64,000 nucleotides of DNA from an uncultured delta proteobacterium. GTDB lineage: Bacteria > Desulfobacterota > Binatia > Binatales > Binataceae. A program made the translations under genes and the position numbers. Location of the stretch: NCBI GenBank assembly GCA_963808235.1, contig CAWEEQ010000001.1:128001-192000 (forward strand). The letters are read 5' to 3'. This document shows, piece after piece, positions 7,963-27,362 of the stretch. The notes beneath the pieces were generated by a model. That model ran no database searches. It worked only from the letters and a program-made list of their open reading frames with translations, and was not told where the DNA came from. Within the stretch, counting starts at the first letter, position 1. Each line of letters starts with the position of its first letter.

Positions 7963-9494
7963 CTCAGCACTCGGATACCAGTCTCGCGAACATGTCAGTC
8001 GAGCAGAAAAGGAATCTGCTGTCTCGGTTGATGGCGCGGAAAGCCGCGTGGGAACGGCGTCTGCCTTTGTCGTTCGCCGAAGAGCGGCTCTGGTATTTGG
8101 ATGCGCTGGAGCCCGGTAACCGGGCCTATGTTATGTCGGCCGCGGCCCAGTTTAGCGGCCAGTTCGACGCATCGGCGTTCGCTCGGGCCGTGAACGACAC
8201 GGTGCGGCGGCACGAATCTCTGCGAACATTCTATCTCACAGGGGAAAATGGGCCCGTGCGTGCAATCGCGTCCACGCTCACCGTCGAAGTACCGGTGATT
8301 GACCTGCGCCAGCTGGAACCCGGCGAACAGCAGCGGGCCATACTGTCCCACGCACTTGATGATTCACTACTCGGCTTCAGTCTTTCCGAGTTGCCGCTCT
8401 TCAGAATCCTGCTGCTGCGGCTCGATGAGAATGTGCACGTAAGTCTCGCGGCGATTCATCATATAATCTTCGATCATTGGTCGACGCAGATTTTCCACCG
8501 CGAGGTGATGGCTCGATACGCCGCCCTATGTTCACGCCAGGAGTGCCGGCTCCCCGAACTCCCTATTCAGCTTTCGGACTTCGCTACCTGGCAGAGAAAA
8601 ACGCTGCGAGGCGATGTTCTACAGAGCCATCTGGACTATTGGCGAACCAAGCTCTCCGGAATTCCCAACCTTGATCTCCCCACTGATCACCCACGACCAT
8701 CAATCAAGACCTACGCCGCCGCAAGCTTCAGCCGAAAGCTAACCGCCGGTCTGGCGGAGGACCTTGCCAGACGCAGCAGCCAGCACGGGGTGACGCTTTT
8801 CATGACCTTGCTGGCTTGCTTCAAGATTCTCCTGCACTACTATTCGCGCCAAGACGACATAGTGGTCGGCATCGACGTCGCCGGGCGCACGCGCTCAGAG
8901 GCGGAGCCCCTGATCGGTTTCTTTGTCAATGAGCTCCCGCTTCGCACCGACCTGTCGGGAAATCCGCAGTTCGAGGAAATGTTGGCTCGGGTTCGTCAGA
9001 CCTGCCTCGAAGCGTATTCGCATCAGGATGCGCCCTTTCATCAGATCGTCAAGCTGTTGCCGCGAGCGCGTGACCTGAGCCGCGCCCCGGTTTTTCAAAT
9101 CAAGCTTGCCCTGGCGCGCCCCGCTATTCCGGAAAGCGCCTTGCCGGATCTATCGGTACAGCCGCTGGAGCTCGTGCCACCGGCTACTGAATTGGACCTG
9201 ACGCTCTTCCTGGAAGATACGCGTGAGGGCTTCATCGCGACGATTCAATATAACCGGGATCTCTTCGACCGCAGCACGATAGCTCTGTTGATGTGCAGAC
9301 TTGAGATGGTGCTTGACGCCGTAGCGCGCGGCTCCCACCAGCGGCTCGATAAATTTATCGAACAGCTGAGTCTCACTACGACCAACGCAAAATCTCAGGT
9401 ACGCACTTTTCTTTCGTCCCGGCCGCATGCGATCTCCGGCAGCCGCAAGGCGGTATCGATTAGTGGAGAATCTGCCCTTCACGTCTCAGGTTGA
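7959..9494 (+). CDS. Stand-alone NRPS condensation domain with N-terminal docking helix
   Basis: LSFAEERLW, RHESLRT, HHIIFDHWS, LDLPTDHPRP, IGFFVNELPLR; ATGA overlap with the PKS stop. Confidence 0.9.
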   Translation: MTQHSDTSLANMSVEQKRNLLSRLMARKAAWERRLPLSFAEERLWYLDALEPGNRAYVMSAAAQFSGQFDASAFARAVNDTVRRHESLRTFYLTGENGPVRAIASTLTVEVPVIDLRQLEPGEQQRAILSHALDDSLLGFSLSELPLFRILLLRLDENVHVSLAAIHHIIFDHWSTQIFHREVMARYAALCSRQECRLPELPIQLSDFATWQRKTLRGDVLQSHLDYWRTKLSGIPNLDLPTDHPRPSIKTYAAASFSRKLTAGLAEDLARRSSQHGVTLFMTLLACFKILLHYYSRQDDIVVGIDVAGRTRSEAEPLIGFFVNELPLRTDLSGNPQFEEMLARVRQTCLEAYSHQDAPFHQIVKLLPRARDLSRAPVFQIKLALARPAIPESALPDLSVQPLELVPPATELDLTLFLEDTREGFIATIQYNRDLFDRSTIALLMCRLEMVLDAVARGSHQRLDKFIEQLSLTTTNAKSQVRTFLSSRPHAISGSRKAVSISGESALHVSG

Positions 9495-9507
9495 CAGGAC
9501 GTTGATC

Positions 9508-12500
9508 ATGGAACAGCTCTTCGAAGATCCATCGCTCGTTGGGAACACAGGCTACGAACTCTCGCCCGAGCAACAACACGTCTGGACGTTGCGATCTCAG
9601 GGCGCCGCAAATGCCGTGCAGTGCCGAATTTTGCTGCGCGGACCGGTCAGGCCGGAATTGATCGCTGACGCGCTGGCGATGCTCGTGAAGCGTCACGAGA
9701 TTCTGCGGACGGTCTTCGTTCAACCGCATGCCGGGAGTGATCCTTTACAGGTGGTGCTTCCCGAACTCGCGCCCGACATCGAGACTGTCAGCTTGCGCGG
9801 TCTGTCATCCGGACACCGTCATGAAGCCGTCTCCGAACTCGCCGCCGGCGAATTTCGCAATGATGACGCGCGGAGAGTGCCGGGACTGCGTGCGTTAGTA
9901 ATCGAGATCGCGCATGACGAGTACGAGTGTGTTCTCACCGTTGATTCCATGTACGCCGACCAACGCACGCTCGACTACCTGATGGCAGAATTTGCGGGCT
10001 GCTACGAATGTTGTGCGCGCGGAGGTGCGCGAACCGGCGACATTATTCAATATGCGGACTTCGCAGCCTGGCATAACGACATTCTCAACAGCGATGCCGC
10101 CGAGGTTGGCAAGGGGTTCTGGAGAGAAAGCGGTTTGGCGGCGGCCACTCATCCCCAGCTGTCGTACGAGAAAGGCACGGTGCGCGGGAACCACCTCTCT
10201 CCGAGGATTGCAACCGTCAATCTCGATCGACGTCTCGTGAGTGAAATCGAAGAAGTATCGCGCACGCTGGATTCCCGGCCCGCCGACTTTGTGATGTTGT
10301 GCTGGCAGACGGTCCTGTTTCGAAATACGCTGCAAAGCCCGGTGGTCGTGTTTGAAAGTTCTGACCAGCGCAGCGAAGGCGCCACCATTGGTCTCTTCAG
10401 CAGATGGCTTCCCATCGACACCCAGCTTTCACAAAGCTCGCGCTTCTCCACCAGCTTGCGAGAGTTGACCGGTCGTATCGATCGGGCGGCGGAATGGAGG
10501 GACTACTACGCAGAAGTCGACTGCGAACGCGGAGGTATCGCGTTCGAGTTCATCGACGAATTTTCCTCGATCGACGCCGCGGGCGTTCGGGTTGCGATCC
10601 GTGATCGCTTCGCGCCGGCGCCACAGTTCAAGCTATGTATGACGTGCTTCCGCCACGAAGATGCTTGGCAATTGGCCCTGCAGTTCGACACAAACGTCTT
10701 CACCACCGAGCAGGCGGAGAGTCTTCTGGCGCAGACCATCGAAGTGCTCCGAACGGCGACCGTGGCTTGCGATTACCTAATCCAGGATCTCGCTCTGATC
10801 GACTCACAAGCCGGCCACAAACTTATCGCGCATCTGAACCAGACTCAGACCGCTTACCCGCGTACGGCATCGCTTCAAGTCTTGTTTGAAACCCAGGCCG
10901 GCCAACAGACTGAGCGGGTCGCGGTGCGTTTCGGGGAGCAAACGCTCACCTACGAGGATCTCAGCGAACGCGGTAATCGCATCGCACTTCGACTCGCGGC
11001 CTTGGGAGCCAAGCCGGGTGACGCGGTCGGGCTCTGCCTCGAGCGCGGGATCGAAATGCCGATCGGCGTGATCGGAATCATAAAAGCCGGATGCGCATAT
11101 GTGCCTATCGATTGCGAATGCCCGCGCGAACGCGCGCATTTGATGGCCCGTGATGCCGGTCTGCGGCTCGTCTTGACCGACGCACGGGGAGCGGAGCTCT
11201 TCTCGAATGTTGAAGGCGTCAAATCTGTCGATATCAGTTTGACTCTGCTCGAGACGCCTAACCTCGGCAATCCGGCGTGCGCAACGGATGGCGACAGCAT
11301 CGCGTACGTCATGTACACGTCGGGATCGACCGGTGTCCCCAAAGGAATAAGCATTCCGCATCGCGGCGTCTCACGCCTGGTTGTCGACACCAACTACGTC
11401 TCTATAAAACCGGGCGATTCTATCGCGCAGGTCGCGAATTGCGCTTTTGACGCCGTAACGTTCGAGATTTGGGGGGCCCTCCTCAACGGCGCTGAATTGG
11501 TGATCATCCCGCGAGAGATCGTGCTCTCGCCGCAGGAATTCGCCGACGCTCTGTCCCGGCGGCCGATTAGAGCGATGTTTCTGACTTCCGCTCTGTTCAA
11601 CCAGGTGGCGCAGACGATTCCACATGCGTTCCACACGGTAGACACTCTCCTGGTCGGCGGAGATGCGCTCAATCCATTGTGGATTCGCAAGGTGCTTTCG
11701 TGCGAGGGGAGGCCGCGTCGCATCCTGAATGGCTATGGCCCGACGGAGAGCACCACCTTCGCTTGCGTGTTCGAGGTGAAAGAGGTTGCACAAGATGCCG
11801 TCGCGATTCCGATCGGAAAGCCAATCGCGAACACCGAGGCGTTCGTGCTCGACCACTGTCTGCGGCCGCTTCCGCCAGGCGTTCCCGGCGATTTGTTCAT
11901 CGCAGGCGACGGCTTAGCGACCGGATACCTGAACGATCCGAAACGAACCGCTTTTTCCTTTTTAGCGAATCCTTATGCCATACCCGGCTCGCGCATGTAC
12001 CGGACCGGCGACATCGCCCGTCTGCGTTTCGATGGGAATTTCGACTTTCTGGGACGCAACGACGATCAAGTCAAAGTACGCGGTTTCAGAATCGAGCTGG
12101 CCGAAATCGAAGCTGCGCTGATTGCGCATCCGCGAGTCGAGTCGGCGGCTGCAATTGTGCGGTCGGACCCTTCAGGCAACAAACGGTTGATCGCATACTA
12201 TGTCGAAACGGCTGGCGCGGAGGCCGCCCTGACCGTCGCCGACTTGCGGGCCTTTCTCTTAACTCGATTACCGGAGTACATGCTGCCAGCAGTTTTTCTC
12301 AGACTCGATACCCTGCCGCTGAACCTCAACGGCAAACTGGATCGAACGAGATTGCCGGAGCCCGCTGAGGTTGAGACAGAGTTCACACGCGCGCCAATTG
12401 CGCCACGCAACTCGGTCGAGCAACAACTGTCGGACATCTGGAGAAAAGTCCTCAACCTGAAAGAAGTCGGGGTGAAGGATAATTTCTTCGAGCTCGGTGG

Positions 12501-13998
12501 AGATTCGATTCTGAGCATACGCGTGGTCACCGAGGCCCGGAAATTGGGCATCGCTTTGACGCCCAAACGCTTTCTGCAATGTCAAACGATTGCCGAATTG
12601 GCTGCGGTCGCATCGTCGGAAGCTGGTTCCGATTATCCCGATTCGGAACCGCTGGCAGGATCGAGCGCGCTGTCCTCTTCTCAGGCATGGCACTTCGATC
12701 AGCCAGGCCCTGACTTTCATCACTACAACATGGCGATTCAATTGCAGGCACGCAGACCGATCGATGTCCATGTGCTCGAAGCAGCGGTGAACGCTTTGTT
12801 CGACTATCACGACGCGCTCCGTCTCCGGTTCCGCATGGGTGCGGAAGGCTGGCAGCAATCCACGGGCGACCGGTCAACGGCCACCCTGCTCACCACGATC
12901 GATTTGAGCCGTCTGGCGGACAGCGAGGCTCGCCAAAAAGCCCTGGACGATGCCACCAGCGAGATCCAGGCGAGTCTCGATCATTCCGACGGCCCGCTGA
13001 CCAGATTTGTCTACTTCGAGCTCGGAAAAGATTCGCCGGGCCGCCTGCTGATAGTCACTCATCACCTCGTAGCTGATGCGGTGTCGTTGCGGATTCTGGT
13101 CGAGGATCTTTTGACTGCTTACGAACAAATTAGTGGAGGCGGGCCGATTGCACTGCCTGCCAAGACCGCATCCTACAGCCGATGGGCCGATTACGTTAAC
13201 CGCCGCGTACGGCAAGGCGCTCTGGATCATGAACTGCAGTACTGGATCGAGGAGCTATCGCAGGCGAATGCGCCGGTTCGAGTTGATCGGAGTATAGATC
13301 CGGTCCAGGTCGACACGGAACAGTGGTCCCGGTCGTTCGTCGAGCGGCTGACTTCGGAAGATACGCGATTCCTTCTTCAGCATGCGCCCACCATTTACAA
13401 ATCGCAGTTCCTCGAGCTGCTGCTGGCTGCATTCGCTCGCTCCTTCGCCCGGTGGAATCGCGATCGCTCGGTCTTTATCGACCTTAGTATTCACGGCCGC
13501 CAGGACTTTGACGAGGAGGCACCCGACATCTCCCGCTCGGTCGGATGGTTCAGCGGGCTAACGCCCCTTCGTCTCAATTCATGCGGCATGGATGACCCCG
13601 GCTGCGACCTGAGCATCGTCAAGCGCCAACTGGCGCGGATGCCCAACGGCGGCATCGGTTACCAGATGATTCGCTATCTCGGCATGGAGTCGGAACAGAC
13701 GCGGGCCCTGCGAGCGCTGCAGGGTCCAAAGGTCTGCTTCGCGTATCTAGGCCAGTTTGATGAAAAGATCCTGGACCAACCCATCTTCGAGCTTGTACGC
13801 GCCAATAACGGACCTGCTCGAAGTGCTCGAAACGCCAGGCGATATACCCTCGAAGTGTTCGTCGGAGTGGTCAATCAACAACTCGAAATCGAGTGCAACT
13901 TCAGCTCGCTGCGCTACGATGACGCGAGCATTCGCGCGCTGCTTGAGGAAATGGCAGGGGCTCTCCGCGCGCTCAAACAGGATTCCAGAACCGCATAG
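9508..13998 (+). CDS. NRPS: degenerate C/interface-like domain - A - T - E
   Basis: N-domain GYELSPEQQHVW, RHEILRT but no HHxxxDG; A: YTSGSTGVPKG, NGYGPTE, YRTGD, NGKLDR; T: GGDSI; E: HHLVADAVSLRILVEDL, SRSVGWF, PNGGIGY, YLGQFD. Confidence 0.92.
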   Translation: MEQLFEDPSLVGNTGYELSPEQQHVWTLRSQGAANAVQCRILLRGPVRPELIADALAMLVKRHEILRTVFVQPHAGSDPLQVVLPELAPDIETVSLRGLSSGHRHEAVSELAAGEFRNDDARRVPGLRALVIEIAHDEYECVLTVDSMYADQRTLDYLMAEFAGCYECCARGGARTGDIIQYADFAAWHNDILNSDAAEVGKGFWRESGLAAATHPQLSYEKGTVRGNHLSPRIATVNLDRRLVSEIEEVSRTLDSRPADFVMLCWQTVLFRNTLQSPVVVFESSDQRSEGATIGLFSRWLPIDTQLSQSSRFSTSLRELTGRIDRAAEWRDYYAEVDCERGGIAFEFIDEFSSIDAAGVRVAIRDRFAPAPQFKLCMTCFRHEDAWQLALQFDTNVFTTEQAESLLAQTIEVLRTATVACDYLIQDLALIDSQAGHKLIAHLNQTQTAYPRTASLQVLFETQAGQQTERVAVRFGEQTLTYEDLSERGNRIALRLAALGAKPGDAVGLCLERGIEMPIGVIGIIKAGCAYVPIDCECPRERAHLMARDAGLRLVLTDARGAELFSNVEGVKSVDISLTLLETPNLGNPACATDGDSIAYVMYTSGSTGVPKGISIPHRGVSRLVVDTNYVSIKPGDSIAQVANCAFDAVTFEIWGALLNGAELVIIPREIVLSPQEFADALSRRPIRAMFLTSALFNQVAQTIPHAFHTVDTLLVGGDALNPLWIRKVLSCEGRPRRILNGYGPTESTTFACVFEVKEVAQDAVAIPIGKPIANTEAFVLDHCLRPLPPGVPGDLFIAGDGLATGYLNDPKRTAFSFLANPYAIPGSRMYRTGDIARLRFDGNFDFLGRNDDQVKVRGFRIELAEIEAALIAHPRVESAAAIVRSDPSGNKRLIAYYVETAGAEAALTVADLRAFLLTRLPEYMLPAVFLRLDTLPLNLNGKLDRTRLPEPAEVETEFTRAPIAPRNSVEQQLSDIWRKVLNLKEVGVKDNFFELGGDSILSIRVVTEARKLGIALTPKRFLQCQTIAELAAVASSEAGSDYPDSEPLAGSSALSSSQAWHFDQPGPDFHHYNMAIQLQARRPIDVHVLEAAVNALFDYHDALRLRFRMGAEGWQQSTGDRSTATLLTTIDLSRLADSEARQKALDDATSEIQASLDHSDGPLTRFVYFELGKDSPGRLLIVTHHLVADAVSLRILVEDLLTAYEQISGGGPIALPAKTASYSRWADYVNRRVRQGALDHELQYWIEELSQANAPVRVDRSIDPVQVDTEQWSRSFVERLTSEDTRFLLQHAPTIYKSQFLELLLAAFARSFARWNRDRSVFIDLSIHGRQDFDEEAPDISRSVGWFSGLTPLRLNSCGMDDPGCDLSIVKRQLARMPNGGIGYQMIRYLGMESEQTRALRALQGPKVCFAYLGQFDEKILDQPIFELVRANNGPARSARNARRYTLEVFVGVVNQQLEIECNFSSLRYDDASIRALLEEMAGALRALKQDSRTA

Positions 13999-14284: not shown

Positions 14285-15136
14285 ATGAAATACGATGTCG
14301 TCGGCGTTCTGGGCGCGGGAGTGATGGGCAGCGGTGTCGCCCAAGCGCTCGCGGAGCATGGACATCGAGTGGTTCTGGTCGACAGCTCCTCCGATGCGTT
14401 GAAGTCTTCGCAGCGGCTGATCGGCAAGAACATCCGGCTCGCCTGCTTGCTGAACAAGGAAGCCCGGCCCACCACCGATGCGATCTACTCGAGGATCAAT
14501 TTCTCGACCCGCTTCGACGCTCTCGCTGAAGCCAGGTTCGTAGTCGAAAACGTTACCGAAAACTGGTTCATCAAAGAGTCGGTCTATCGGCAACTCGATC
14601 GAACTTGCAGCCCGGAAGTGTGTATCGGCGTCAACACCTCCGCGATCTCCATCACCAAGCTCGGTTCGATCACAAACCGGCCTGGGCAGGTGATCGGAAT
14701 GCACTTCATGAATCCTGTGCCAGTAATGCCGACCGTCGAGTTGATTCGCGGCTATCACACTTCCCAGGCAACCATAGAGGCGGCGCAGACGCTGGTCGCG
14801 GATATGGGCAAAGAGTCGATCCTGGTCCAGGACTCACCGGGCTTCGTGACAAATCGGGTAATGATGCTGATGGTCAACGAGGCGATCTTCCTGGTGCAGG
14901 AGGGAGTAGCCACTTCGCAGGAAGTGGATCGGCTCTTCAAGACCTGCTTCGGCCACAAGATGGGGCCGCTAGAAACCGCTGATCTGATCGGCCTCGATAC
15001 CATTCTGTATTCAATCGAAGTCCTGTCCGAGAGCTTCGACGACAGCAAATACCGGCCCTGCACGCTACTCAAGAAGATGGTCAGCGCGGGATTGCTGGGA
15101 CAGAAATCGGGCGAAGGGTTCTATCGCTATAGCTGA
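14285..15136 (+). CDS. 3-hydroxyacyl-CoA dehydrogenase family (FkbK/ZmaG-like, extender-unit biosynthesis)
   Basis: GVLGAGVMG, NTSAISIT, GMHFMNP, SPGFVTNR, CFGHKMGPLETADLIGLDT; adjacent to ACP and ACAD. Confidence 0.88.
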   Translation: MKYDVVGVLGAGVMGSGVAQALAEHGHRVVLVDSSSDALKSSQRLIGKNIRLACLLNKEARPTTDAIYSRINFSTRFDALAEARFVVENVTENWFIKESVYRQLDRTCSPEVCIGVNTSAISITKLGSITNRPGQVIGMHFMNPVPVMPTVELIRGYHTSQATIEAAQTLVADMGKESILVQDSPGFVTNRVMMLMVNEAIFLVQEGVATSQEVDRLFKTCFGHKMGPLETADLIGLDTILYSIEVLSESFDDSKYRPCTLLKKMVSAGLLGQKSGEGFYRYS

Positions 15137-15187
15137 TCTAATTCTAATTCCGGCGCAACCCGGCACTTGCCAACACAGGCGGTCATT

Positions 15188-15448
15188 ATGGAAGCAACTG
15201 ACAAACTCAACGGATTCTTTTCGAAAAGCTTCGCAGGTCGGCAACTTCATCGCGACGACGACATCTTCGCATCGGGCTTCGCCAATTCGATGTTCGCGAT
15301 GCAGCTCGTTAACTTCATCGAGAAGGAGTTTCGGGTCGAGATCGAAAACGAAGATCTGGACCTGGAAAACTTTCGCACGATCGACCGGATCGCGAACCTC
15401 ATCGATCGCAAGCAGACAGCCAGCCGAGTCTCTGGGTCGGCGTCATGA
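15188..15448 (+). CDS. Discrete ACP of the amino/hydroxy/methoxymalonyl-ACP type (FkbJ/ZmaH-like)
   Basis: DIFASGFANSMFAMQLV (NS-type Ppant motif), DLDLENFRTI. Confidence 0.88.
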   Translation: MEATDKLNGFFSKSFAGRQLHRDDDIFASGFANSMFAMQLVNFIEKEFRVEIENEDLDLENFRTIDRIANLIDRKQTASRVSGSAS

Positions 15449-16260
15449 TGGACGGAGTTCAAAGTTCATTCGAACCTCGGCGCGACGAAGCCGCGGTTCA
15501 GCTTGCCAAAGGATCGTGGGCGACGATCGCCGAGCTACGCGGTTCCGCCCGGATGCGACTCTTCTGCTTTCCCTATGCCGGCGGCGGTTCCTGGATCTTC
15601 AATCGATGGAGTGACGGTCTTGGACCATCGTTCCAGATCTGCCCCATCCATCTCCCTGGCCGTGGCATAAGGTTTCTCGAAAGGGCGATGCGCAGGGTCG
15701 ACGAAGTCGCAGTAGCGGCAGCGCGAGCGCTCGCGCCACAAATCAACGCGCCGTTCGCCGTTTTTGGACACAGTTTCGGAGGCTTGGCGGCGTTTGAATT
15801 CGTGCGCGAACTCCGACGGGTGGGCGCGCCACAGCCAGTTGCGTTCGTCGCTTCCGCTTGTTCAGCTCCACAAATCCAGCGCGCGCGGCATGGTCTCCAT
15901 CGCCTTGAAGAAGGTGATTTGCTGGCAGCGCTGAGGCACATGGGCGGCACTCCCGAGCCGATTCTTCGGGACACAGAGTATATGCGGATGGTTCTGCCGA
16001 CTATTCGCGCCGACTTCGAAGCGCTCGAGACTTACGAATACCAGGATGAGCCACCGCTCGATTGTCCAATCACGGTCTTCGGAGGCAAGGACGACCGCGG
16101 GATGACTATCGAACAACTCGCGGGCTGGTCGGATCAGACGACGGCTGGCTTCAGGCTTCGCATTCTGGCCGGCGGACATTTCTTCCTGTCCACTCACGAA
16201 GCCGACCTGATGCCGCTCCTGGCTCGCGAGTTTGACGCTGCGCTATCTGCGGCAACCTGA
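15445..16260 (+). CDS. Type II thioesterase
   Basis: LFCFPYAGG, GHSFGG, IRADF, GGHFFL. Confidence 0.9.
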   Translation: MMDGVQSSFEPRRDEAAVQLAKGSWATIAELRGSARMRLFCFPYAGGGSWIFNRWSDGLGPSFQICPIHLPGRGIRFLERAMRRVDEVAVAAARALAPQINAPFAVFGHSFGGLAAFEFVRELRRVGAPQPVAFVASACSAPQIQRARHGLHRLEEGDLLAALRHMGGTPEPILRDTEYMRMVLPTIRADFEALETYEYQDEPPLDCPITVFGGKDDRGMTIEQLAGWSDQTTAGFRLRILAGGHFFLSTHEADLMPLLAREFDAALSAAT

Positions 16261-16270
16261 GGCAAGCACC

Positions 16271-17419
16271 ATGATGGATTCTACTACTTGCGAGAACGAA
16301 GTCCGTTCGGAAATCAGAGCCTTCGCGGTGGAGAAAGTCGCACCGCTTGCCGAGATCGTGGACCGCGAGCAGCGCATTCCTTCCGAAGTTCTTGATGGAT
16401 TGCGACGCAGATTTCTGGGTTGCGCGCTGCCGCGCGCGGCTGGCGGTGGCGGTATAAGCCCGGTCCTTTACGGGGTCATGAATGAGGAGCTGGGCCGCAT
16501 CAGCGCGTCCGTGCAGGGCGTGCTCAACGTCCACAACATGGCGTCTCAGCCGGTGGCGCGCTGGGGCGATCGCCAATTGAAAAATCGATGGCTGCCGCGG
16601 CTAGCCGGCGGAGAGCTGCTCGCCGCGATCGCGATCACCGAAGCCGCGGTCGGTTCGAATGCTGAGCGAGTGCAGACCACCGCCCGCCCCTCGGGCGATC
16701 ACTATGTTCTGAATGGCGCAAAACGATGGATAACTTGTGGTCAGATTGCCGACGTATTCCTGGTGCTCGCGCGATGTGGTGAGCTCCCGACTGCATTCCT
16801 TGTTCGGCGCGATACACCCGGTCTCGCCGTCGAACCGATCCGCGACATGCTGGGCTGTCGCGGCTACATGCTCGCCGAGTTGACGTTCAGCGATTGCCGC
16901 GTGCCAGCTCAGGATCTGGTTGGAAGGCCGGGTTTTGGTTTCTCGCACGTGATCTCGCACGGCCTCGATGTGGGCCGCTACGGACTCGCTTGGGGGTGCG
17001 TCGGGCTGGCGCAAGGCTGTCTTGACGTCAGTATTGAATATGCGTCCAGACGCGAGCAGTTTGGCTCTCTCATCCGCGATCACCAGTTGATTCAGCGTCT
17101 GATCGCGAACATGTCGGTCGGCGTCAAGGCAGCGCGGCTGCTATGCCGCGAGGCAGGCCGCCTGCGCGCCGACGGCGAGCCCAGCGCGATCGTAGAGACC
17201 ACGACTGCAAAGTACTTCGCTTCGCGGGTATGCGCCGACGCGGCGCGCGACGCGGTCCAGATTCATGGGGCCAACGGCTGCAGCCGGCGGTATGCGGTCG
17301 AACGTTACTTTCGCGATTCAAAGATCATGGAGATCATCGAGGGCACCTCGCAGGTGCTCGAACTGTTAATCGCCACCCATGCTTACACCGATCACGTCGC
17401 AGCCGCGGCGGTCGATTGA
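16271..17419 (+). CDS. Acyl-CoA/ACP dehydrogenase (FkbI/ZmaI-like)
   Basis: AITEAAVGSN, LNGAKRWIT, GRYGLAWGCVG, REQFG, AVQIHGANG, RDSKIMEIIEGT. Confidence 0.88.
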   Translation: MMDSTTCENEVRSEIRAFAVEKVAPLAEIVDREQRIPSEVLDGLRRRFLGCALPRAAGGGGISPVLYGVMNEELGRISASVQGVLNVHNMASQPVARWGDRQLKNRWLPRLAGGELLAAIAITEAAVGSNAERVQTTARPSGDHYVLNGAKRWITCGQIADVFLVLARCGELPTAFLVRRDTPGLAVEPIRDMLGCRGYMLAELTFSDCRVPAQDLVGRPGFGFSHVISHGLDVGRYGLAWGCVGLAQGCLDVSIEYASRREQFGSLIRDHQLIQRLIANMSVGVKAARLLCREAGRLRADGEPSAIVETTTAKYFASRVCADAARDAVQIHGANGCSRRYAVERYFRDSKIMEIIEGTSQVLELLIATHAYTDHVAAAAVD

Positions 17420-17431
17420 GGGATAACACCA

Positions 17432-18631
17432 GTGACGTACACGCAAAGCTATGACATTTCCGGGATGGATTCCGCCCTTGTTGAGCACATCACGAGCACG
17501 ATCCGGATCGGGCGCGAAAGCTTGGACTCGTGGTCAATCGACGAAAACTCGAAGACTCTCTTCATCGAGACGGGCAATCGCCAGGCGCTCGACTATATAG
17601 ACGGTTTCGTCGATCACGTCCGCGGCACGCGCAAGAAGCTGCGCAGCAAAGAGCTTCTCTCCAACTCAGCGCGAGATCTGTATCAGGGAGATATCGATCG
17701 CGACCTCGCGGAATCCGGTGAGGTGTTGGAACTGGACGCAGGCCTGGTCGGATTGCGCGGTACCTTGCTCGGACTGTTCCGGTTCTTCGAAAGCGAGTTC
17801 ATCGCGATAGCTCGCGAGTATCGAGCGCAAGAGCATCACTATCCAGTCATGATTCCGATCCGTATTCTCGAAGAGCTCAAATACTTTGAACATTTCCCGC
17901 AACAGGTAACCTTCTGTTCGCATCTGCCGGAAGACTTGCCGCTCCTCAGCGGTCTCGCCGAAGACGTCCACGCAAATGCGGGATGCTTGTCGGCGGCGCA
18001 GCGCGAGCGCCTTGCTCCGGCCAATCACGCCCTTAAGCCGGCCGTGTGCATCCCATGCTACCGGCAATACCGCGACACAACGTTGCCGCCGGGTGGAATC
18101 GCCGTGACGATGCAGAACCACGTTTACCGCTACGAGGGGGCTAACTTCCGGTCGCTCAGCCGGCTTTGGGACTTCTCGGTGCGAGATATCGTGTTCTTCG
18201 GCGAGGGCGACACCCTGGTTCGTCTGCGACAGGAGGCTGCGTCCCGCGCGATGTCGCTGTGCATAGAGCTCGATCTCGAGGCAAAGATTCAACTGGCCAA
18301 CGATCCTTTCTTTCTCGATCAATCTCGCGACAAACGAATCTATCAGCGCATGGGCGAGGTCAAATACGAACTGGTCTTGCCGCTGCCGCATCGCGGGGGC
18401 GAACTGGCAGTTTCGTCGTTCAACCTCCACCGCGACTTCTACAGCAGCGTTTACAACATTCGCATCGAAGACGGATCCCTGGCCGAGACTGCCTGCATGG
18501 GTTTCGGTGTAGAGCGATGGTTGTACGGTTTCTTGAGCCAGAAGGGACTCGACGCCCGGCGATGGCCGTCGCGAATCAACGATTTTATTCGAAGCAACGC
18601 CGCCGCGAGCGGCTCAGGACCAAACCCATGA
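17432..18631 (+). CDS. Class II aaRS-like (atypical SerRS-related) amino acid:[carrier protein] ligase
   Basis: YFEHFP, LKPAVCIPCY, YRYE (motif 2), RLWDFSVRDIV, ANDPFF, KYELVLPL, SFNLHRDF, TACMGFGVERW (motif 3): collinear with the motifs I recall for Bradyrhizobium/Agrobacterium aa:CP ligases. Confidence 0.82.
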   Translation: MTYTQSYDISGMDSALVEHITSTIRIGRESLDSWSIDENSKTLFIETGNRQALDYIDGFVDHVRGTRKKLRSKELLSNSARDLYQGDIDRDLAESGEVLELDAGLVGLRGTLLGLFRFFESEFIAIAREYRAQEHHYPVMIPIRILEELKYFEHFPQQVTFCSHLPEDLPLLSGLAEDVHANAGCLSAAQRERLAPANHALKPAVCIPCYRQYRDTTLPPGGIAVTMQNHVYRYEGANFRSLSRLWDFSVRDIVFFGEGDTLVRLRQEAASRAMSLCIELDLEAKIQLANDPFFLDQSRDKRIYQRMGEVKYELVLPLPHRGGELAVSSFNLHRDFYSSVYNIRIEDGSLAETACMGFGVERWLYGFLSQKGLDARRWPSRINDFIRSNAAASGSGPNP

Positions 18632-20361
18632 CGCTCCATAACTCAGGTTCCAGGAGTACGAGTTTCATCGACGCCCTGATAACCGGAAGATGCGATTGGT
18701 CGCTCATCACGCCGTTTCCTTCTCAGCCCAGGGAAGACAAAGCGATCGGTGATCAATTTCTTCGTCGGTTTGAATCCGACTTGCGCAGCACGATCGATCC
18801 AAACGCCGGCACCGACGATGAGAAAATCGCGCTTTCGTCAATCGCGGCATTAGCCGACAAAGGCTACCTCGGATTGCGCATACCATTGGAATATGGCGGC
18901 GCTGGCCTGTCTGAGCACAACTACTTCAGGGCGCTGAGCCTCGCGGGAACCTGGTGTTTGTCGACTACCTGCACGCTGCTTGCGCATTCGAGCATCGGAC
19001 TGACCGGACCGCTACTGCTGTTTGGCAGCGAAGAGCAAAAGCGCAAGTTTCTTCCGCTACTGGCGCGCGGCGCACTGTCGGGGTTTGCCTTGACCGAGCC
19101 TGACGCCGGGAACGACTACAGCCGGACCAGGAGCGTGCTTGTGCCGGTTGATGGAGGATACCTTCTGAGCGGCGAGAAGCTCTTCATTACCAACGCACCC
19201 ATAGCCCAGTTTCTCTGCGTATTTGCCAGGTTGGGCAATGCCGTTGATCAATATGCGTTGGTGATCGTGGAGACTGATCGGCCTGGCTTTTCCGTAGTCG
19301 AGCAATGCTCCTTCCTTGGATTGCCCGGCATTCACAACGGCCTCGTCAGATTCGATAACGTGAGAATTCCTCGCGATGCCGTTATCGGCGAGCTAGGACA
19401 CGGGTTCGAGCATCTTCTCGATGCGGCGACCGGCGGCTGGATGACGCTTGCTTCGGTTTCTTCAGGAGTATCGCGCCATTGCTTACGGATATTGCGCGAT
19501 TGGGCCAATCGCCGTGTTCAGTGGGGTAGTCCAATCGGAAAGCATGAGGCGATCCAGAGGATCCTCTCCAAGGCAGCCGCTCACGTTTATGCGATCGATA
19601 ACCTCTCGAGTCTGACCGTGGCTGCCGCTGGAACTATATCTCCCGGGTTCAGAACCCTTGCCCGCATAGCCAAGTACTTCGGCCAGGAACAATGCTGGCT
19701 AATCGTCGACGATTCCTTGCAGGTCTGCGGGGCGCGTGGCTACGAGACGCTGCGCTCGGCCCGCAAGCGCGTAAATGCATGTGCGTCCGACGAGGTGCAG
19801 CATGAAGAGCTGCTGGCGCCTATCGAGAAGGTCTTCCGGGACTTCCGTCTCTTCAGACTCGCCGAGGGATCGAGCCAGACCCTCCCGCTCATGATGTCGC
19901 TCGACCTCTTGTCAGCTACCGCCGCGGAACCGTGTGGCGTTCCGTCGGTAGATCCGACGGTGATCCGCAGAAATCTGCCTCTGCTTAGTGACGAAAATCT
20001 GCGACACGCCGCCTTCGTTGGTACATCCGCCGCGCGACTCGCTCATGAAGTCCGCGCCAGTCTCAACAAATACGGTGCGGAGCTGCAGGCCGAACAGGAA
20101 GTCCTGATTGCCCAAGGCGACATTCTGACCGATCTGGTCGCGATGAGCGCGAGCCTCTCGCATGCGGGCTCCGAACATTCGGATGAACATGTGACAGAGG
20201 CAGAGCAGGAACTCACCGATCGGTTCTGTCTATACGCCGAGCATCGCATAAATCGGAACTTCGATCGAATTCGCAACCATGAGGTGGGAGCATATTCCCC
20301 CATAAGCGAACGCCTTTTGAGTGGCGGACTGGATTGGATGATGCGCGACATCGTCAGTTGA
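18628..20361 (+). CDS. Long acyl-CoA/ACP dehydrogenase, probable lipid-tail desaturase
   Basis: LAHSSIG, FALTEPDAG, LSGEKLFITN, RVQWG.PIGKHE, FRDFRLFRLAEG; ATGA coupling to the upstream gene. Confidence 0.85.
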   Translation: MTLHNSGSRSTSFIDALITGRCDWSLITPFPSQPREDKAIGDQFLRRFESDLRSTIDPNAGTDDEKIALSSIAALADKGYLGLRIPLEYGGAGLSEHNYFRALSLAGTWCLSTTCTLLAHSSIGLTGPLLLFGSEEQKRKFLPLLARGALSGFALTEPDAGNDYSRTRSVLVPVDGGYLLSGEKLFITNAPIAQFLCVFARLGNAVDQYALVIVETDRPGFSVVEQCSFLGLPGIHNGLVRFDNVRIPRDAVIGELGHGFEHLLDAATGGWMTLASVSSGVSRHCLRILRDWANRRVQWGSPIGKHEAIQRILSKAAAHVYAIDNLSSLTVAAAGTISPGFRTLARIAKYFGQEQCWLIVDDSLQVCGARGYETLRSARKRVNACASDEVQHEELLAPIEKVFRDFRLFRLAEGSSQTLPLMMSLDLLSATAAEPCGVPSVDPTVIRRNLPLLSDENLRHAAFVGTSAARLAHEVRASLNKYGAELQAEQEVLIAQGDILTDLVAMSASLSHAGSEHSDEHVTEAEQELTDRFCLYAEHRINRNFDRIRNHEVGAYSPISERLLSGGLDWMMRDIVS

Positions 20362-20547: not shown

Positions 20548-21297
20548 ATGATTTCCAATGCAGTAGAATTCGAGCGAGTTTTGCGGACCTATCGGCGCGG
20601 CGAGTTTGAGGTCATAGCGATCAATGAAGTCTCGCTGGTGATTCCTCAGGGTAAATTCGTTGCGATAATGGGTCCGTCGGGCTCCGGCAAAACGTCGATT
20701 CTGAACCTCATCGCCGGAATTGATCAGCCCACTTCCGGGCGTGTCATGGTCTCTGGCAGCGACCTCGGCGCACTGAGCGAGCGTGAGCTTGCACGCTGGC
20801 GGGCGCACAACGTCGGTCTGATTTTCCAGTTCTACAATCTGATTCCGGTACTGACTGCCGGAGAAAATGTAGAGCTGCCGTTGCTTCTTACCGAACTTCC
20901 AAAGTCCGAGCGGCACTCTCACGTCGAGGCTGCGCTGAGGGTCGCGGGGCTCGCCGATCGCATCGATCACTACCCCAGCCAGCTTTCAGGCGGTCAGGAA
21001 CAACGCGTAGCGATAGCGCGCGCACTGATTACGGACGGCGCGATCATCGTCGCAGACGAGCCTACCGGAGACCTCGACGCCAACTCGGCCCACGAGATCC
21101 TCACATTGATGCGTGAGCTGAGCCGTCGTCACAACAAGACCGTAATCATGGTGACACATGACCCACGCGCAGAGCGCTACGTCGACACGGTGTTCCGGAT
21201 GGACAAAGGCGTGCTGGTCAGCATCGAAGATATGGCGCGAGGGCCGCAACCTCGCCCCGAATCGACGGTCGAACTCGCGCACGTCGGCCTTGGCTAG
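20548..21297 (+). CDS. ABC transporter ATP-binding protein (MacB/LolD type)
   Basis: GPSGSGKT, LSGGQEQRVA, ADEPTG, MVTHD. Confidence 0.93.
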   Translation: MISNAVEFERVLRTYRRGEFEVIAINEVSLVIPQGKFVAIMGPSGSGKTSILNLIAGIDQPTSGRVMVSGSDLGALSERELARWRAHNVGLIFQFYNLIPVLTAGENVELPLLLTELPKSERHSHVEAALRVAGLADRIDHYPSQLSGGQEQRVAIARALITDGAIIVADEPTGDLDANSAHEILTLMRELSRRHNKTVIMVTHDPRAERYVDTVFRMDKGVLVSIEDMARGPQPRPESTVELAHVGLG

Positions 21298-21331
21298 GAT
21301 GCGGACGATCTGAATACCGGAGGCAATCTCT

Positions 21332-22471
21332 ATGGATACCCTGTGGTTGATTTTGAAAAACCTCAGACGAAACCGGCGCCGCACGATACTGACGTTGGTT
21401 TCAATCGCGATGTCGTTGTTCATTTTTTCCGCATTGGTGAGTCTGCCGGGAGCAGCGCGCGAGATGCTTGGCGCGACCGCATCATCGCTTCGCGTGACGA
21501 CTCACAGCAACGTCGGCCTGACATATCCGCTTCCCGAGGCGCTCGGACGCAAAATTGCGGCATTGCGACATGTGCAGGCGGTCGCTGCAGTAACCTGGTT
21601 TGGAGGAATATATGATCAGCCCTCCAACCAGTTTCCGAACTTCGCCGTGGATCACGAACAGTTCGGCAAGATTTGGCCGGACTGGGGCGCATCGCGCCAA
21701 TCGCTCTCTGAATTCCAGAAGAATCGCATCGCGTGCCTGGTGGGACCTTCCACGATGCGGCGTTTCCGCTGGCACGTCGGACAGCAAATCATCCTACGCG
21801 GCGTGTTCGTTCCGGCCACGATCACCCTTCAAATCGCGGGAGAGCTTGGTGAGAAGGCGGCTGATTTTCTGATTTTTCGTCGTGACTATCTACAAGAAGT
21901 CCTCGGCCAGCCGCTGTGGGTCAATAACTTCTGGCTCCACGTCGATCGCCCCGAGTCGATTCCGCGGGTGATTGCGGAAGTTGACGAAACGTTTCGCAAT
22001 TCCGAGAATGAAACTCGCAGCGAATCGGAGGCGAGCTTCCTGGGGGGGATCTTTGGCAGCTATCGATCGCTGTTTGCAATCGCCGAGGTTCTCGGCCTGA
22101 TCGTGATCGCTGCGATCGTCCTGGTCGCCGCCAACACCGCCGCCATGTCGATTCGGGAGCGACGGGTCGAGGTCGCAGTGTTGCGCTCTCTCGGCTTCAC
22201 CTCAGACACGGTATTTGTCCTTTTGATCGGCGAGTCGATACTGCTGGGCGCGGCAGGAGGTCTGCTCGGATGCCTTGCATGCTATGGCGTCTTCAAGCTG
22301 ATGGCGGTTGGCGCAGCGGCGCTGGGTCCTATGGCCGTGATCAAAATGCCGCCCTGGGTGCTTGGCCAAAGTCTCACAGTGGCGGTTCTGATTGGCTTGT
22401 TCAGCGCACTGGTTCCGGCCTTCAATGCGTCGCGGCGCAATATCGTAACTGCTTTGCGCGAGGTGGGGTAA
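21332..22471 (+). CDS. ABC transporter permease (MacB/FtsX family)
   Basis: KNLRRNRRRTILT N-terminus, ANTAAMSIRERRVEVAVLRSLGF, C-terminal TM helices. Confidence 0.88.
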   Translation: MDTLWLILKNLRRNRRRTILTLVSIAMSLFIFSALVSLPGAAREMLGATASSLRVTTHSNVGLTYPLPEALGRKIAALRHVQAVAAVTWFGGIYDQPSNQFPNFAVDHEQFGKIWPDWGASRQSLSEFQKNRIACLVGPSTMRRFRWHVGQQIILRGVFVPATITLQIAGELGEKAADFLIFRRDYLQEVLGQPLWVNNFWLHVDRPESIPRVIAEVDETFRNSENETRSESEASFLGGIFGSYRSLFAIAEVLGLIVIAAIVLVAANTAAMSIRERRVEVAVLRSLGFTSDTVFVLLIGESILLGAAGGLLGCLACYGVFKLMAVGAAALGPMAVIKMPPWVLGQSLTVAVLIGLFSALVPAFNASRRNIVTALREVG

Positions 22472-22473
22472 TC

Positions 22474-23637
22474 ATGGCAATTCCAATCCGATACAACATT
22501 CGCAATCTGATGGCGCGGCGCACGTCGACAATCATGACGCTGGGCGGAATCGGGCTGGTGGTCGGAATCTTCACGCTGATGATGGCGATGGTTTCCGGTC
22601 TGCGCAAGGCGATCGTCAGCACTGCCTCGCCTGACAACCTGGTCGTGGTCCGCAAGGGATCGACTACTGAAACGAATTCCACGATCTCGGTCGAACAATT
22701 CAACGCTATGCGTTTTCTGAGAGGGGTACGCCACAACGCTACAGGCGAGCCTCTGGCCTCACCGGAACTAACGATGCAGGTCTTCTTGCAGCGCGTCGGC
22801 GGCGGCAGCGACAACATAGTCGCGCGCGGCGTTCTGCCAATCGCGATGGAAGTTCACGAGGGGATAAAGCTGGTCGCGGGACGCATGTTTCGGCCGGGTC
22901 TCAAGGAGGTCGTCGTCGGCTCGAATCTGCCCGGTCGTTACCAGAACTGCAAATTAGGTTCGACCCTGCGCTTCGGCAGAGATCAATGGAAAGTCGTTGG
23001 CGTATTCGCGGCGCGCGGCAGCTCCTTTGAATCCGAAATATGGTCCGACCTTCATGAACTGATCGCCGACAGCCGGCGGGGCGATTACTATTCCTCGGTC
23101 CGACTGCGTGGCGCGGGCGGCCCCGAACGAGCCGAGCTGATCAGCCGCATCGAGCGCGATCCGAGGATCAGCCTCCACGCCGAAACCGAAACCGACTACT
23201 ACGCTGAGCAATCGGTCGCCGCAAATCAGCTTGCCACGATCGGTCTGATGCTGGCTTTGGTAATGGCGATCGGTGCGGTGTCTGGAGCGATGAACACGAT
23301 GTACGCCGCAGTTGCCGCGCGGGTGCCCGAGATAGGAACGTTGCGCGCGCTGGGCTTTAGCTCGGCGAGCGTGCTGTGCTCATTCCTGTTCGAGTCGATG
23401 CTCCTGGCACTGGCCGGCGGCGTAGTAGGCGTTCTGCTGGCGCTACCGATTAACGGGTTTACCTCAAACTTCACCAATTTTTTCAGTTACTCTACTCTGA
23501 GTTTCAAATTTCAGGTCACGCCGCAGATAGTGCTGGAGGCTATTTTGTTTGCCGCCGTTATGGGCACTCTCGGCGGTCTGCTACCGGCTCGCCAGGCGAT
23601 TCGCAAGCGTCTGATTGAATCGCTCAGGAGAATCTAA
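22474..23637 (+). CDS. ABC transporter permease (MacB/FtsX family)
   Basis: YNIRNLMARR, MNTMYAAVAARVPEIGTLRALGF. Confidence 0.88.
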   Translation: MAIPIRYNIRNLMARRTSTIMTLGGIGLVVGIFTLMMAMVSGLRKAIVSTASPDNLVVVRKGSTTETNSTISVEQFNAMRFLRGVRHNATGEPLASPELTMQVFLQRVGGGSDNIVARGVLPIAMEVHEGIKLVAGRMFRPGLKEVVVGSNLPGRYQNCKLGSTLRFGRDQWKVVGVFAARGSSFESEIWSDLHELIADSRRGDYYSSVRLRGAGGPERAELISRIERDPRISLHAETETDYYAEQSVAANQLATIGLMLALVMAIGAVSGAMNTMYAAVAARVPEIGTLRALGFSSASVLCSFLFESMLLALAGGVVGVLLALPINGFTSNFTNFFSYSTLSFKFQVTPQIVLEAILFAAVMGTLGGLLPARQAIRKRLIESLRRI

Positions 23638-23639
23638 CC

Positions 23640-24869
23640 ATGTCCAGCACACCAGCGATTGAAGCTCGAATAGAAGACCTGAGCCATCTGAGCATCGTCC
23701 GCTCCAAGGCCAGAATTTCCGAGCCGAGGCGCTTTCCACGTAGACTCATATTGGCTGGTGCGCTAGCGGCGGGCAGCGCGGTCCTCTGGTTTGGGGCCGG
23801 TAAGGTGACCGCCGCAAGACCGGTGACCGTTCAGACTGCGCCGGCAGAAGAACTCAGGTCGGATAGTGCCAGCGCGGTGCTCAGCGGTTCGGGATACGTC
23901 GTGACGGATCACAGCTACGTCACCGTCGGAACTTTGATCAGCGGTCAAATAGTCGCAGAGCCAATCGAAGAAGGTCAGCACGTTAAAAGAGGCGACCTGA
24001 TCGCGCAAATTGGCGATTCCGATTACCGCGCCCATCTTGGCGAAGCCAATGCCGATTACGCTCGCGCAGTCGCAGAATCTGCGTTGGCTGATCAGCGCGC
24101 AGAGCGGATGAAGCAGCTCTATAGCGAGGGCGTGACGTCGCGCGATGAATACGATTCGCTAATGAGTTCTCAGCGCGTATCGCACGCGGCGCTTGCGCGA
24201 GCCAAAGCTACGGTCGCCTACGCGGCATCGCAGGTCAGGCAGTGCGCGATACGCTCGCCTCTGAACGGGGTTGTGTTGCGGAAATTCCGCGACCAGGGAA
24301 GTACAATCAACTATAGCGTCGAACTGCAGAGCGAAGGCGGATCAACCGACATCGCGATGCTGGCGGACACCGACAATTTGCGCGTAGAGCTCGACGTGAG
24401 CGAATCCGACATCTCGAAAGTGCATGTGGGTATGCCCGCCAGCATCAGCTTGGACGCTTACCCGGACCGTAGCTTCGAAGCGAAGGTTGTCAAGATCTAT
24501 CCCGAAGCAAACCGGCAGAAAGGAAGCATCAAGGTCGAAGTCCTGCTGTTGCATCCCGACCCCACACTCATCCGCCCTGAGATGAGCGCCAAGGTCAACT
24601 TTCTCGACAAACCCGCCCACACCGGCAGCGACGCGCCCATCGTCACCGTGCCGAAGGCTGCGTTGTTCAAATCTGCGGATGGGGCGCCCTTCGTATGGAT
24701 CGTGAATGATGGCCGTGCGGAAAAGACTCCCGTCGAGACAGGACGCCAGGTCGCCGACAACGTACAGATTCAACACGGGCTTAGCGGTTCAGAAACGGTT
24801 GTCGTCGAGCCAGGGGCGAAACTGGTTGATGGTCAGGCTGTCATCGAAAAAAGCGATACTGGCCAGTGA
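23640..24869 (+). CDS. Efflux periplasmic adaptor (MacA/HlyD-type membrane fusion protein)
   Basis: N-terminal anchor, GQHVKRGDLIAQI, coiled coil, IRSPLNGVV, LIRPEMSA. Confidence 0.88.
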   Translation: MSSTPAIEARIEDLSHLSIVRSKARISEPRRFPRRLILAGALAAGSAVLWFGAGKVTAARPVTVQTAPAEELRSDSASAVLSGSGYVVTDHSYVTVGTLISGQIVAEPIEEGQHVKRGDLIAQIGDSDYRAHLGEANADYARAVAESALADQRAERMKQLYSEGVTSRDEYDSLMSSQRVSHAALARAKATVAYAASQVRQCAIRSPLNGVVLRKFRDQGSTINYSVELQSEGGSTDIAMLADTDNLRVELDVSESDISKVHVGMPASISLDAYPDRSFEAKVVKIYPEANRQKGSIKVEVLLLHPDPTLIRPEMSAKVNFLDKPAHTGSDAPIVTVPKAALFKSADGAPFVWIVNDGRAEKTPVETGRQVADNVQIQHGLSGSETVVVEPGAKLVDGQAVIEKSDTGQ

Positions 24870-25664: not shown

Positions 25665-25686
25665 TACGTCGAAGAGAGATAGTTCG

Positions 25687-27334: not shown

Positions 27335-27362
27335 ATGTCCGCTTTCGGGCAGAAGCGGACAT
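27335..27362. repeat. Palindrome with a perfect 10-bp stem (REP-like or terminator)
   Basis: ATGTCCGCTT-tcgggcag-AAGCGGACAT. Confidence 0.6.

Follow-up and report, generated by a model that had tools for sequence, protein, structure and literature searches.

A SerRS-like amino acid:[carrier protein] ligase in the loader position of a putative aminomalonyl-ACP extender cassette from an uncultured Binatia bacterium

The closest described relatives of the locus analyzed here are the cassettes that build polyketide extender units on an acyl carrier protein (ACP): those of zwittermicin (gene order ZmaG-ZmaH-ZmaI-ZmaJ), of colibactin (ClbD-ClbE-ClbF, then ClbG and ClbH) and of the FkbH clusters, in which genes for a 3-hydroxyacyl dehydrogenase (HADH), an ACP, an acyl-CoA dehydrogenase (ACAD)-like flavoenzyme and FkbH follow each other. 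The accessible text of PMC6395733 names two substrates for such cassettes, L-serine via ZmaJ and 1,3-bisphosphoglycerate, which FkbH is said to use. Amino acid:[carrier protein] ligases are described, in the available parts of the literature, by their in vitro reaction alone (PMC9437257, PMC5370406); Bll0957 appears there as a glycine loader without a known pathway (PMC5370406; PDB titles), and the classical members are placed in glycan-type gene neighbourhoods in the accessible part of PMC2922099. We analyzed a 64,000-nucleotide stretch, hereafter the window (C1:128001-192000), from the 4.59 Mb, four-contig genome of an uncultured Binatia bacterium, in which genes for an HADH, an ACP, an ACAD and a ligase resembling seryl-tRNA synthetase (SerRS) lie together. 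Its proteins were searched with Pfam and NCBIfam profiles, and window positions are used throughout. On sequence evidence, we read these genes as an ACP-linked extender cassette whose loader would be a zinc-dependent, SerRS-derived ligase, the seryl-ACP formed being converted to aminomalonyl-ACP for a polyketide synthase (PKS); we give this reading a probability of about 0.6.

Conservation of the cassette and its loader slot

Of the 8000 candidates scored in a word-indexed search with the ligase, 212 proteins reached E ≤ 1e-3. Among the matches listed (119 without the window's own protein) identity was 48-72% and length mostly 370-400 residues, and the closest named relatives were Binatia metagenome bins. 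When a single genome was scanned for each species, 36 loci were obtained, 31 with orthologues (47-72% identity) and five from Paenibacillus (27-29%), whose neighbourhoods were compared by tblastn of the window proteins. The orthologue loci belong to Binatota, Acidobacteriota, Myxococcota and Alpha- and Gammaproteobacteria, and the distribution spans five or more phyla. The ACAD gene lies directly upstream of the ligase gene in all 31 of them. The ACP gene is two or three genes upstream in 28, the remaining records (L005, L010 and L020) beginning within the ACAD gene, and the HADH gene was found in 27, L002 also beginning too late; the misses are contig ends. The full order HADH-ACP-ACAD-ligase is present in 27 of the 31 loci, the other four being truncated in this way. 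Recurrence in every orthologue locus places the arrangement far beyond chance. A preliminary description of this DNA, made from its letters alone, had reported the HADH, ACP, type II thioesterase (TEII), ACAD and aminoacyl-tRNA synthetase (aaRS)-like genes as one co-oriented run, and all five were found on the plus strand at the coordinates of Table 1; the recurrence of the ligase with FkbK/J/I-like genes, which it had proposed as a check, was likewise observed, with the ACAD gene in 31 of 31 loci and without FkbH. The TEII gene is within the cassette only in three Binatia copies, those of the window, L001 and L031.

A ketosynthase-acyltransferase-ketoreductase-ACP (KS-AT-KR-ACP) module or part of one accompanies the cassette in ten loci (L001, L003, L006, L008, L012, L014, L016, L018, L025 and L031). 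Three have nonribosomal peptide synthetase (NRPS) genes alone in reach (L007, L009 and L015), and five are too short or are without these genes (L002, L004, L005, L010 and L020). No cassette-type ligase was found in 24 other genomes of the window's genus, where the best score was 230.7 bits compared with 605.7 for the window's ligase and was about that of a second paralogue in the window genome. The cluster is therefore patchy within the genus, which fits a transferred biosynthetic cluster.

A plasmid search with the ligase identified two Streptomyces plasmids (L043:6163-14333 and L053:1731-10105) carrying a run of KS, alpha/beta hydrolase, HADH, ACP, ACAD, a ligase homologue (397-399 residues, 'hypothetical protein') and a free AT, followed by condensation, carrier and adenylation genes. 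The ligase homologue of L043 is 31% identical to the window's over 84% of the query. The same solution, a free AT directly behind the loader, is used for zwittermicin and colibactin (ZmaF and ClbG). The adenylation (A) domain of the L043 NRPS has the same ten-residue code as that of the window, DAFFLGGTFK, a hint that clusters of two distant phyla make related products.

The window cassette was compared with the zwittermicin cluster of a Bacillus cereus plasmid (L041), the colibactin region of Escherichia coli CFT073 (L044) and the FkbH cassettes of Streptomyces albidoflavus (L045) and Chroococcidiopsis (L046). In the Zma and FkbH cassettes the loader directly follows the ACAD, the position of the ligase in the window. 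With zwittermicin the window shares both the order dehydrogenase-carrier-flavoenzyme-loader and the proposed chemistry, a seryl-ACP oxidised twice; ZmaJ, however, is an NRPS-type adenylation enzyme and the window loader an unrelated class II aaRS-type ligase, and zwittermicin has the free AT ZmaF where the window has a cis-AT alone. The colibactin trio ClbD-ClbE-ClbF also has the window's order, whereas serine is loaded there by the first A domain of the NRPS ClbH and the unit is delivered by a free AT. The FkbH loader, in turn, is a HAD-family phosphatase/transferase, and the unit that it starts carries oxygen and not nitrogen. Forty ACADs were placed in a maximum-likelihood tree, where the 31 that are linked to cassette ligases formed one clade (support 98/99) inside an extender-unit clade of 37 rows (support 100/99) that also held ZmaE, ZmaI, ClbF and three FkbH-linked ACADs. 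Two housekeeping ACADs of the window genome fell outside it, indicating that the cassette genuinely belongs to the extender-unit family. The ligase-linked ACAD of Streptomyces NBC_00557 sat on a long branch outside the extender clade.

The FkbH model TIGR01686 had a single match in the window genome, on contig C4 at 2.19 Mb. Three FkbH queries gave no tblastn match in a set of 34 records and 637,946 bases made up of the 31 orthologue loci, the window and the flank to its left, and FkbH was found neither in the 20 kb left of the window nor in the window's cluster. The C4 gene was rejected as loader of the cassette, given its location on another contig and the lack of FkbH within 10 kb of the ligase in the 31 loci; an action in trans is still conceivable. 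ZmaJ and ClbH-A1, read in the same alignment, both have the serine code DVWHFSLIDK; the 18 AMP-binding domains taken from clusters with the ligase all differ from it. The code of the window NRPS A domain, which we take to be Val/Ile-like, is not the serine code, and the codes of the two FAAL-like genes are not serine-like either. The preliminary description had placed neither a free A domain nor FkbH in the window: this held for FkbH and has to be amended for adenylation domains, since one is present in the NRPS (9427-13998) and an AMP-binding gene lies at 1-971. It had also allowed for an FkbH or a Ser-specific A domain in the part of the cluster to the left that it had not seen; none was found in that flank, whose two AMP-binding genes are not serine-coded. 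By gene content the loader slot is filled by the ligase, and by neither FkbH nor a serine-specific A domain, which is the new point of this locus.

The ligase and its predicted substrate

The ligase had no Pfam match at 1e-3. It matched the NCBIfam model NF005479, 'amino acid--[acyl-carrier-protein] ligase' (E 1.8e-41), and the archaeal-type SerRS models NF002120 (120.7 bits, cut-off 611, E 6.4e-35) and TIGR00415 (102.1 bits, cut-off 489.55), and among PDB sequences it matched Bll0957 (3mey, E 4.4e-27) and the type-2 SerRS of M. kandleri (3w3s, E 9.4e-27). The motifs singled out in the preliminary description (PAVC, YRYE, DPFF, SFNLH and TACMGFGVER) are all present in the translation. An AlphaFold model built with 61 homologues reached a predicted local distance difference test score (pLDDT) of 88.1 and a predicted template-modelling score (pTM) of 0.86. 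Foldseek ranked archaeal-type SerRS and Bll0957 entries first for this model, with TM scores of 0.86-0.87, a root-mean-square deviation of 3.0 and 24% identity in the structural alignment for the Bll0957 chains, so that the fold of 17432-18631 is the SerRS/amino acid:[carrier protein] ligase fold that the motifs had suggested. By these matches the protein is a class II aaRS core of archaeal SerRS type, homologous to amino acid:[carrier protein] ligases and SerRS.

The zinc ligands C206, E235 and C355 correspond in the alignment to the Cys, Glu and Cys of the Bll0957 motifs PAAC, FRRE and TGC and are invariant in the 61 homologues and in every locus copy compared. Residues 273-388 align without gaps with Bll0957 through the segment where the variant 4h2w, by its PDB title an engineered ligase bound to carrier protein, departs from the wild type. 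The match to SerRS and the ligases covers the catalytic core, residues 83-388, and the tRNA-binding domain of SerRS was not seen; the ligase has 399 residues compared with 477-527 for the SerRS chains. Ahead of the core, residues 1-80 (17432-17670) form a variable, poorly conserved beta-alpha-beta-beta-alpha domain that is unmatched in L007, L009, L010, L015, L020, L025 and L028-30, where query coverage starts at residues 57-89. The model of residues 1-90 (pLDDT 68) had no PDB match at E ≤ 0.001, and its fold is generic. A predicted complex of two ligase copies with the ACP scored 0.01 and was not used in either direction. The ligase thus resembles Bll0957 (3mey, 4h2s) in fold, in the Cys-Glu-Cys zinc site, in having a small carrier nearby and in lacking the tRNA-binding domain, and differs from it by a Gly in place of Ala281, by the extra N-terminal domain and by its fixed linkage to an HADH and an extender-type ACAD.

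A second ligase paralogue of 446 residues (28% identity) is encoded on contig C4 of the same genome (L040:7202-10291). Its neighbours are an 81-residue carrier, a GNAT protein and an MBOAT acyltransferase, within a polysaccharide locus with a Wzz-type kinase, a Wza-type exporter, a GT4 glycosyltransferase and a methyltransferase.

Serine is favoured as the substrate because the HADH requires a hydroxyl group and the aldehyde that it leaves is what the ACAD clade oxidises to the malonyl carboxylate, and because the ligase has the fold and the zinc site of enzymes that activate serine. Position 357, which lines the pocket and follows the zinc ligand C355 by two residues, holds Gly in each of the 32 cassette ligases as well as in the Streptomyces ligase (C-x-G-F-G), and M. 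kandleri SerRS reads C-A-G-L-G here. Ala occupies this position (C-V/I-A-F-G) in Bll0957, in the Bll0957-like paralogues of related Binatia (L048, L050-52) and in a ligase-like protein from an Alkalihalophilus plasmid (L042). We take A281 of Bll0957 to be the same place as position 357. In work attributed to Marsavelski et al. 2014, an A281G change reportedly lets the glycine-specific Bll0957 activate serine and alanine. Serine, which we infer from these features, is the weakest link of the proposal.

The adjacent ACP (15167-15448) presumably accepts the amino acid. Its top NCBIfam match was PRK07081, a carrier paired with amino acid:[carrier protein] ligases (E 7e-8), and its attachment serine is of the NS type (G-F-x-N-S-M-F-A-M-Q-L-V).

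Proposed pathway and competing explanations

In the pathway that we propose, the Sfp-type phosphopantetheinyl transferase would convert the ACP to its holo form, and the ligase would make seryl-AMP and transfer the serine to the ACP thiol. The NAD-dependent HADH would then oxidise the serine hydroxyl to an aldehyde and the ACAD-like flavoenzyme the aldehyde to an acid, giving aminomalonyl-ACP. The AT of the single KS-AT-KR-ACP module would transfer the aminomalonyl unit onto the module ACP, the KS would join it to a fatty-acyl starter supplied by the FAAL-type ligases and the free carrier, and the KR would yield a 2-amino-3-hydroxyacyl chain, which the condensation domains may link to a Val/Ile-like residue. 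The TEII would remove mis-loaded groups from the carriers, and a MacB/HlyD pump may export the product.

In all five other PKS-linked loci examined the NRPS is condensation-adenylation-peptidyl carrier protein-thioesterase (C-A-PCP-TE), leaving no spare condensation domain, and the PKS is the only visible consumer there. The window AT has the motifs GHSIG and (F)MCQ-RVPAS-HAYH. The ligase-linked cis-ATs that could be read (7/7) have (H/R)AYH where other cis-ATs have HAFH, and among 12 other ATs a Tyr at this place was found only in the aminomalonyl AT ClbG (VPYH), which in this respect also resembles the window. As a sign of the extender type the motif is suggestive only. Motifs of the ATs ZmaA, ZmaF and ZmaK and an 'RXR' rule for ACP-using ATs are given in the accessible part of PMC4207774.

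Several observations weigh against an aminomalonyl cassette serving a PKS. The 'RXR' rule was dropped: its first basic residue is missing in the ligase-linked ATs and also in the malonyl-CoA ATs ClbB (QHR) and ClbI (INK). In the Streptomyces clusters with a ligase, the motif of the free ATs is the ordinary HAFH, and the basal forks of the AT tree are unresolved, as are those of the HADH tree, where a housekeeping paralogue falls in the same polytomy. The ACAD tree cannot separate amino and hydroxy types, since ZmaI and ClbF do not group. The ligase reaches 142.1 bits on NF005479, for which the curated cut-off is 357; this shortfall, together with 48-72% identity within the group and about 24-30% to Bll0957-like proteins, makes it a separate subfamily. 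Gly at the 357 position also occurs in the Paenibacillus loci and in the C4 paralogue, that is, in ligases of other contexts, so that G357 permits serine and does not prove it. The terminal condensation domain of the window NRPS has no downstream partner and could use an aminoacyl-ACP. Finally, thirteen loci (L011, L013, L017, L019, L021-L024 and L026-L030, e.g. L028:3671-11017), which the preliminary description had not foreseen, carry the cassette and show no PKS up to 10 kb away. Their hosts are Azospirillum, Sphingomonas, Allosphingosinicella, Methylobacterium, Rhodobacterales, Phaeobacter and one gammaproteobacterium, and directly upstream of the HADH gene they have genes for a pyridoxal phosphate (PLP)-dependent enzyme, an AsnB-like glutamine amidotransferase and a small P-loop kinase, often with SbnA/SbnB-like genes near. 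The cassette product must on this account have at least one PKS-independent use, which tempers the term 'extender' for the family and not for the window. One idea is that the AsnB-like enzyme may amidate the free carboxylate of aminomalonyl-ACP in these thirteen loci.

An aminoacyl-ACP serving as a peptide building block, with the carrier as a free thiolation domain whose amino acid, either unchanged or oxidised by the two dehydrogenases, is taken up by the terminal C domain of the NRPS or by another transferase, would suit both this end of the window NRPS, which lacks an A-PCP after its last C, and the extra condensation protein that precedes the NRPS in the window, L001 and L025. The thirteen loci with PLP enzyme, AsnB-like and kinase genes and without a PKS point the same way, as does the location of other amino acid:[carrier protein] ligases beside BtrH-like transferases. 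We nevertheless regard such a role as unlikely, given the complete C-A-PCP-TE in the five further loci with a PKS, the free AT immediately behind the ligase in the two Streptomyces clusters and the position of the ACAD in the extender-unit clade. It is quite unlikely that the ligase loads Gly or Ala, as the Bradyrhizobium and Agrobacterium enzymes do, with the dehydrogenases acting in another way on this bound residue or serving a different substrate: neither Gly nor Ala offers a 3-hydroxyacyl dehydrogenase anything to oxidise, position 357 is Gly as in SerRS and not Ala as in Bll0957 and its paralogues, and the trio resembles serine/glycerate-processing cassettes at about 37-61% identity. Such loading would, however, agree with the accessible accounts of the characterised members, for which Gly and Ala, and not Ser, are reported (PMC5370406, PMC9437257).

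A further point against an aminomalonyl product is that HADH, ACP and ACAD are all nearer to FkbH-linked (hydroxy/methoxymalonyl) relatives than to those of the proven aminomalonyl cassettes. Identity to the FkbH-linked proteins is 57-61% for the HADH (ClbD 53%, ZmaG 51%), 47-60% for the ACP (ClbE 44%, ZmaH 37%, ZmaD 47%) and 49-50% for the ACAD (ClbF 40%, ZmaI 39%, ZmaE 41%), and by path length the AT nearest to that of the window is one from an FkbH cluster. The ligase might accordingly load a hydroxy acid such as glycerate, in an ATP-dependent route to hydroxymalonyl-ACP that replaces FkbH. This is very improbable in our view: the zinc triad is invariant, and zinc in the SerRS/amino acid:[carrier protein] ligase family binds the alpha-amino group of the substrate, as in the structures of M. 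barkeri SerRS and Bll0957. We also know of no aaRS-type enzyme of this family that activates a hydroxy acid. That the protein is a tRNA-charging or self-resistance copy of SerRS which merely lies within the cluster is hardly credible, even with the match to the archaeal SerRS model NF002120 and with SerRS structures at the top of the fold search. Its bit score is far from the cut-off of that model, its shorter chain matches SerRS over the catalytic core only, with no PDB match at E ≤ 0.001 for residues 1-90, it aligns without gaps with Bll0957 through the segment varied in 4h2w, and it is linked to the carrier cassette without exception.

Aminomalonyl-ACP formed from ligase-loaded serine is thus the reading that we retain. 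The preliminary description had called it a third priming route, and as a hypothesis this is well supported by the loader slot in 31 of 31 loci, the Streptomyces lineage, the ACAD clade and the lack of FkbH or a Ser A domain. We lean slightly towards a third, independently evolved way of priming ACP-linked extenders, one that arose at least twice, is spread over five or more phyla and has a PKS-independent use in Proteobacteria. No report linking SerRS-like ligases to aminomalonyl or any other extender unit was found in full-text searches, subscription papers and supplements being outside their reach. If the proposal is right, the amino acid:[carrier protein] ligases, a family without a physiological role since 2010, would gain their first one. 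Aminomalonyl-ACP puts a free amine on a polyketide backbone, and the searched literature describes it for no other products than zwittermicin and colibactin; guadinomine is a further case. Genome mining could then use the ligase to point to polyketides that bear an amine in Myxococcota, Acidobacteriota, Binatota and Streptomyces, and engineering could use it as a compact, NRPS-independent serine loader.

Organization of the cluster and other settings

The genes of the cluster are listed in Table 1. Both free AMP-binding genes have the FAAL-type C-terminal domain PF23024 and lie on the minus strand, left of the MaoC gene; the second lies just beyond the left end of the window and is followed by a TetR gene and a biotin carboxylase gene, which mark a visible left border of the cluster, with no FkbH inside it. 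The free-standing carrier probably takes up the starter acyl group, the long ACAD probably tailors the acyl chain, and the alpha/beta hydrolase is a possible candidate for the release enzyme. A homologue of the MaoC gene (42% identity) follows the ligase gene in L025, and the long ACAD has a counterpart only in L031 among the loci (71% identity). Right of the cluster, the open reading frames (ORFs) 27564-30686 (minus strand, 1040 aa) and 27119-27766 (215 aa) had no Pfam match at 1e-3.

Table 1. Genes of the cluster, in window positions unless a record name is given
Feature	Position	Strand	Matches and remarks
Free AMP-binding gene, 5' part, FAAL-like	1..971 (gene: L039:5058-6971)	-	637 aa in full, crosses left window edge; PF00501 E 4e-65, PF23024 E 4.5e-6
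Second free AMP-binding gene	L039:3286-5169	-	627 aa; PF00501 E 2.5e-71, PF23024 E 1e-10
MaoC-type (R)-hydratase/dehydratase	1429..2283	+	PF01575 E 8.5e-30, PF22622 E 1.2e-18
Free-standing carrier protein	2430..2804 (L039:8430-8804)	+	PF00550 E 1.8e-13
PKS module KS-AT-KR-ACP	3176..7962	+	Pfam domains split over two frame breaks
Condensation-domain protein	7959..9494	+	PF00668 E 6.3e-93
NRPS: C-like, A, PCP, terminal C	9427..13998	+	PF00668, PF00501, PF13193, PF00550
NAD-dependent 3-hydroxyacyl dehydrogenase (HADH)	14285..15136	+	PF02737 E 1e-52, PF00725 E 1.4e-33; FkbK/ZmaG/ClbD counterpart
Dedicated carrier protein (ACP)	15167..15448	+	PF00550 E 4e-5; FkbJ/ZmaH/ClbE counterpart
Type II thioesterase (TEII)	15445..16260	+	PF00975 E 1.9e-47
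ACAD-like flavoenzyme	16232..17419	+	Three ACAD domains, E 2.5e-43 to 1.9e-21; FkbI/ZmaE/ZmaI/ClbF counterpart
SerRS-like amino acid:[carrier protein] ligase	17432..18631	+	399 aa; NF005479, archaeal SerRS models, PDB Bll0957
Long ACAD with ACAD9/VLCAD-type C-terminal domain	~18700..20361, start not fixed	+	PF00441, PF02771, PF02770, PF21343
MacB-type ABC exporter (ATPase, two FtsX permeases) and HlyD-type adaptor	20548..24869	+	Syntenic in L031
Sfp-type phosphopantetheinyl transferase	24885..25664	+	PF01648 E 1.5e-20
Alpha/beta hydrolase	25612..26637	+	PF00561, PF12697

The PKS of the window is spread over three ORFs, single-base breaks near 4225 and 6955 splitting the KS C-terminal domain and the KR domain. 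Public short-read contigs over 4000-7200 had one base fewer at 4225 (run X2, one contig, depth 3.2) and one base fewer at 6955 (run X1, one contig, depth 2.4), and no further indels were listed over this interval. Removing both bases gives a single frame of 1594 residues. Since the only two reported indels coincide with the two breaks, the PKS was read as intact despite the low depth, and the breaks are probably assembly errors and not signs of a dead gene.

Seven of the PKS-linked loci (L003, L006, L008, L012, L014, L016 and L018) share the unusual NRPS A-domain code DVRHFA(L/I)LAK. As L012 and L016 carry SbnA/SbnB-like genes, 2,3-diaminopropionate is a possible substrate of these domains. 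On the Alkalihalophilus plasmid (L042:10776-17746) a BtrH-type protein is encoded with the ligase-like gene that has Ala at the pocket position and with an ACP of its own; immediately after these come HADH-ACP-ACAD genes with their own FkbH and AT, and both kinds of loader occur in one cluster.

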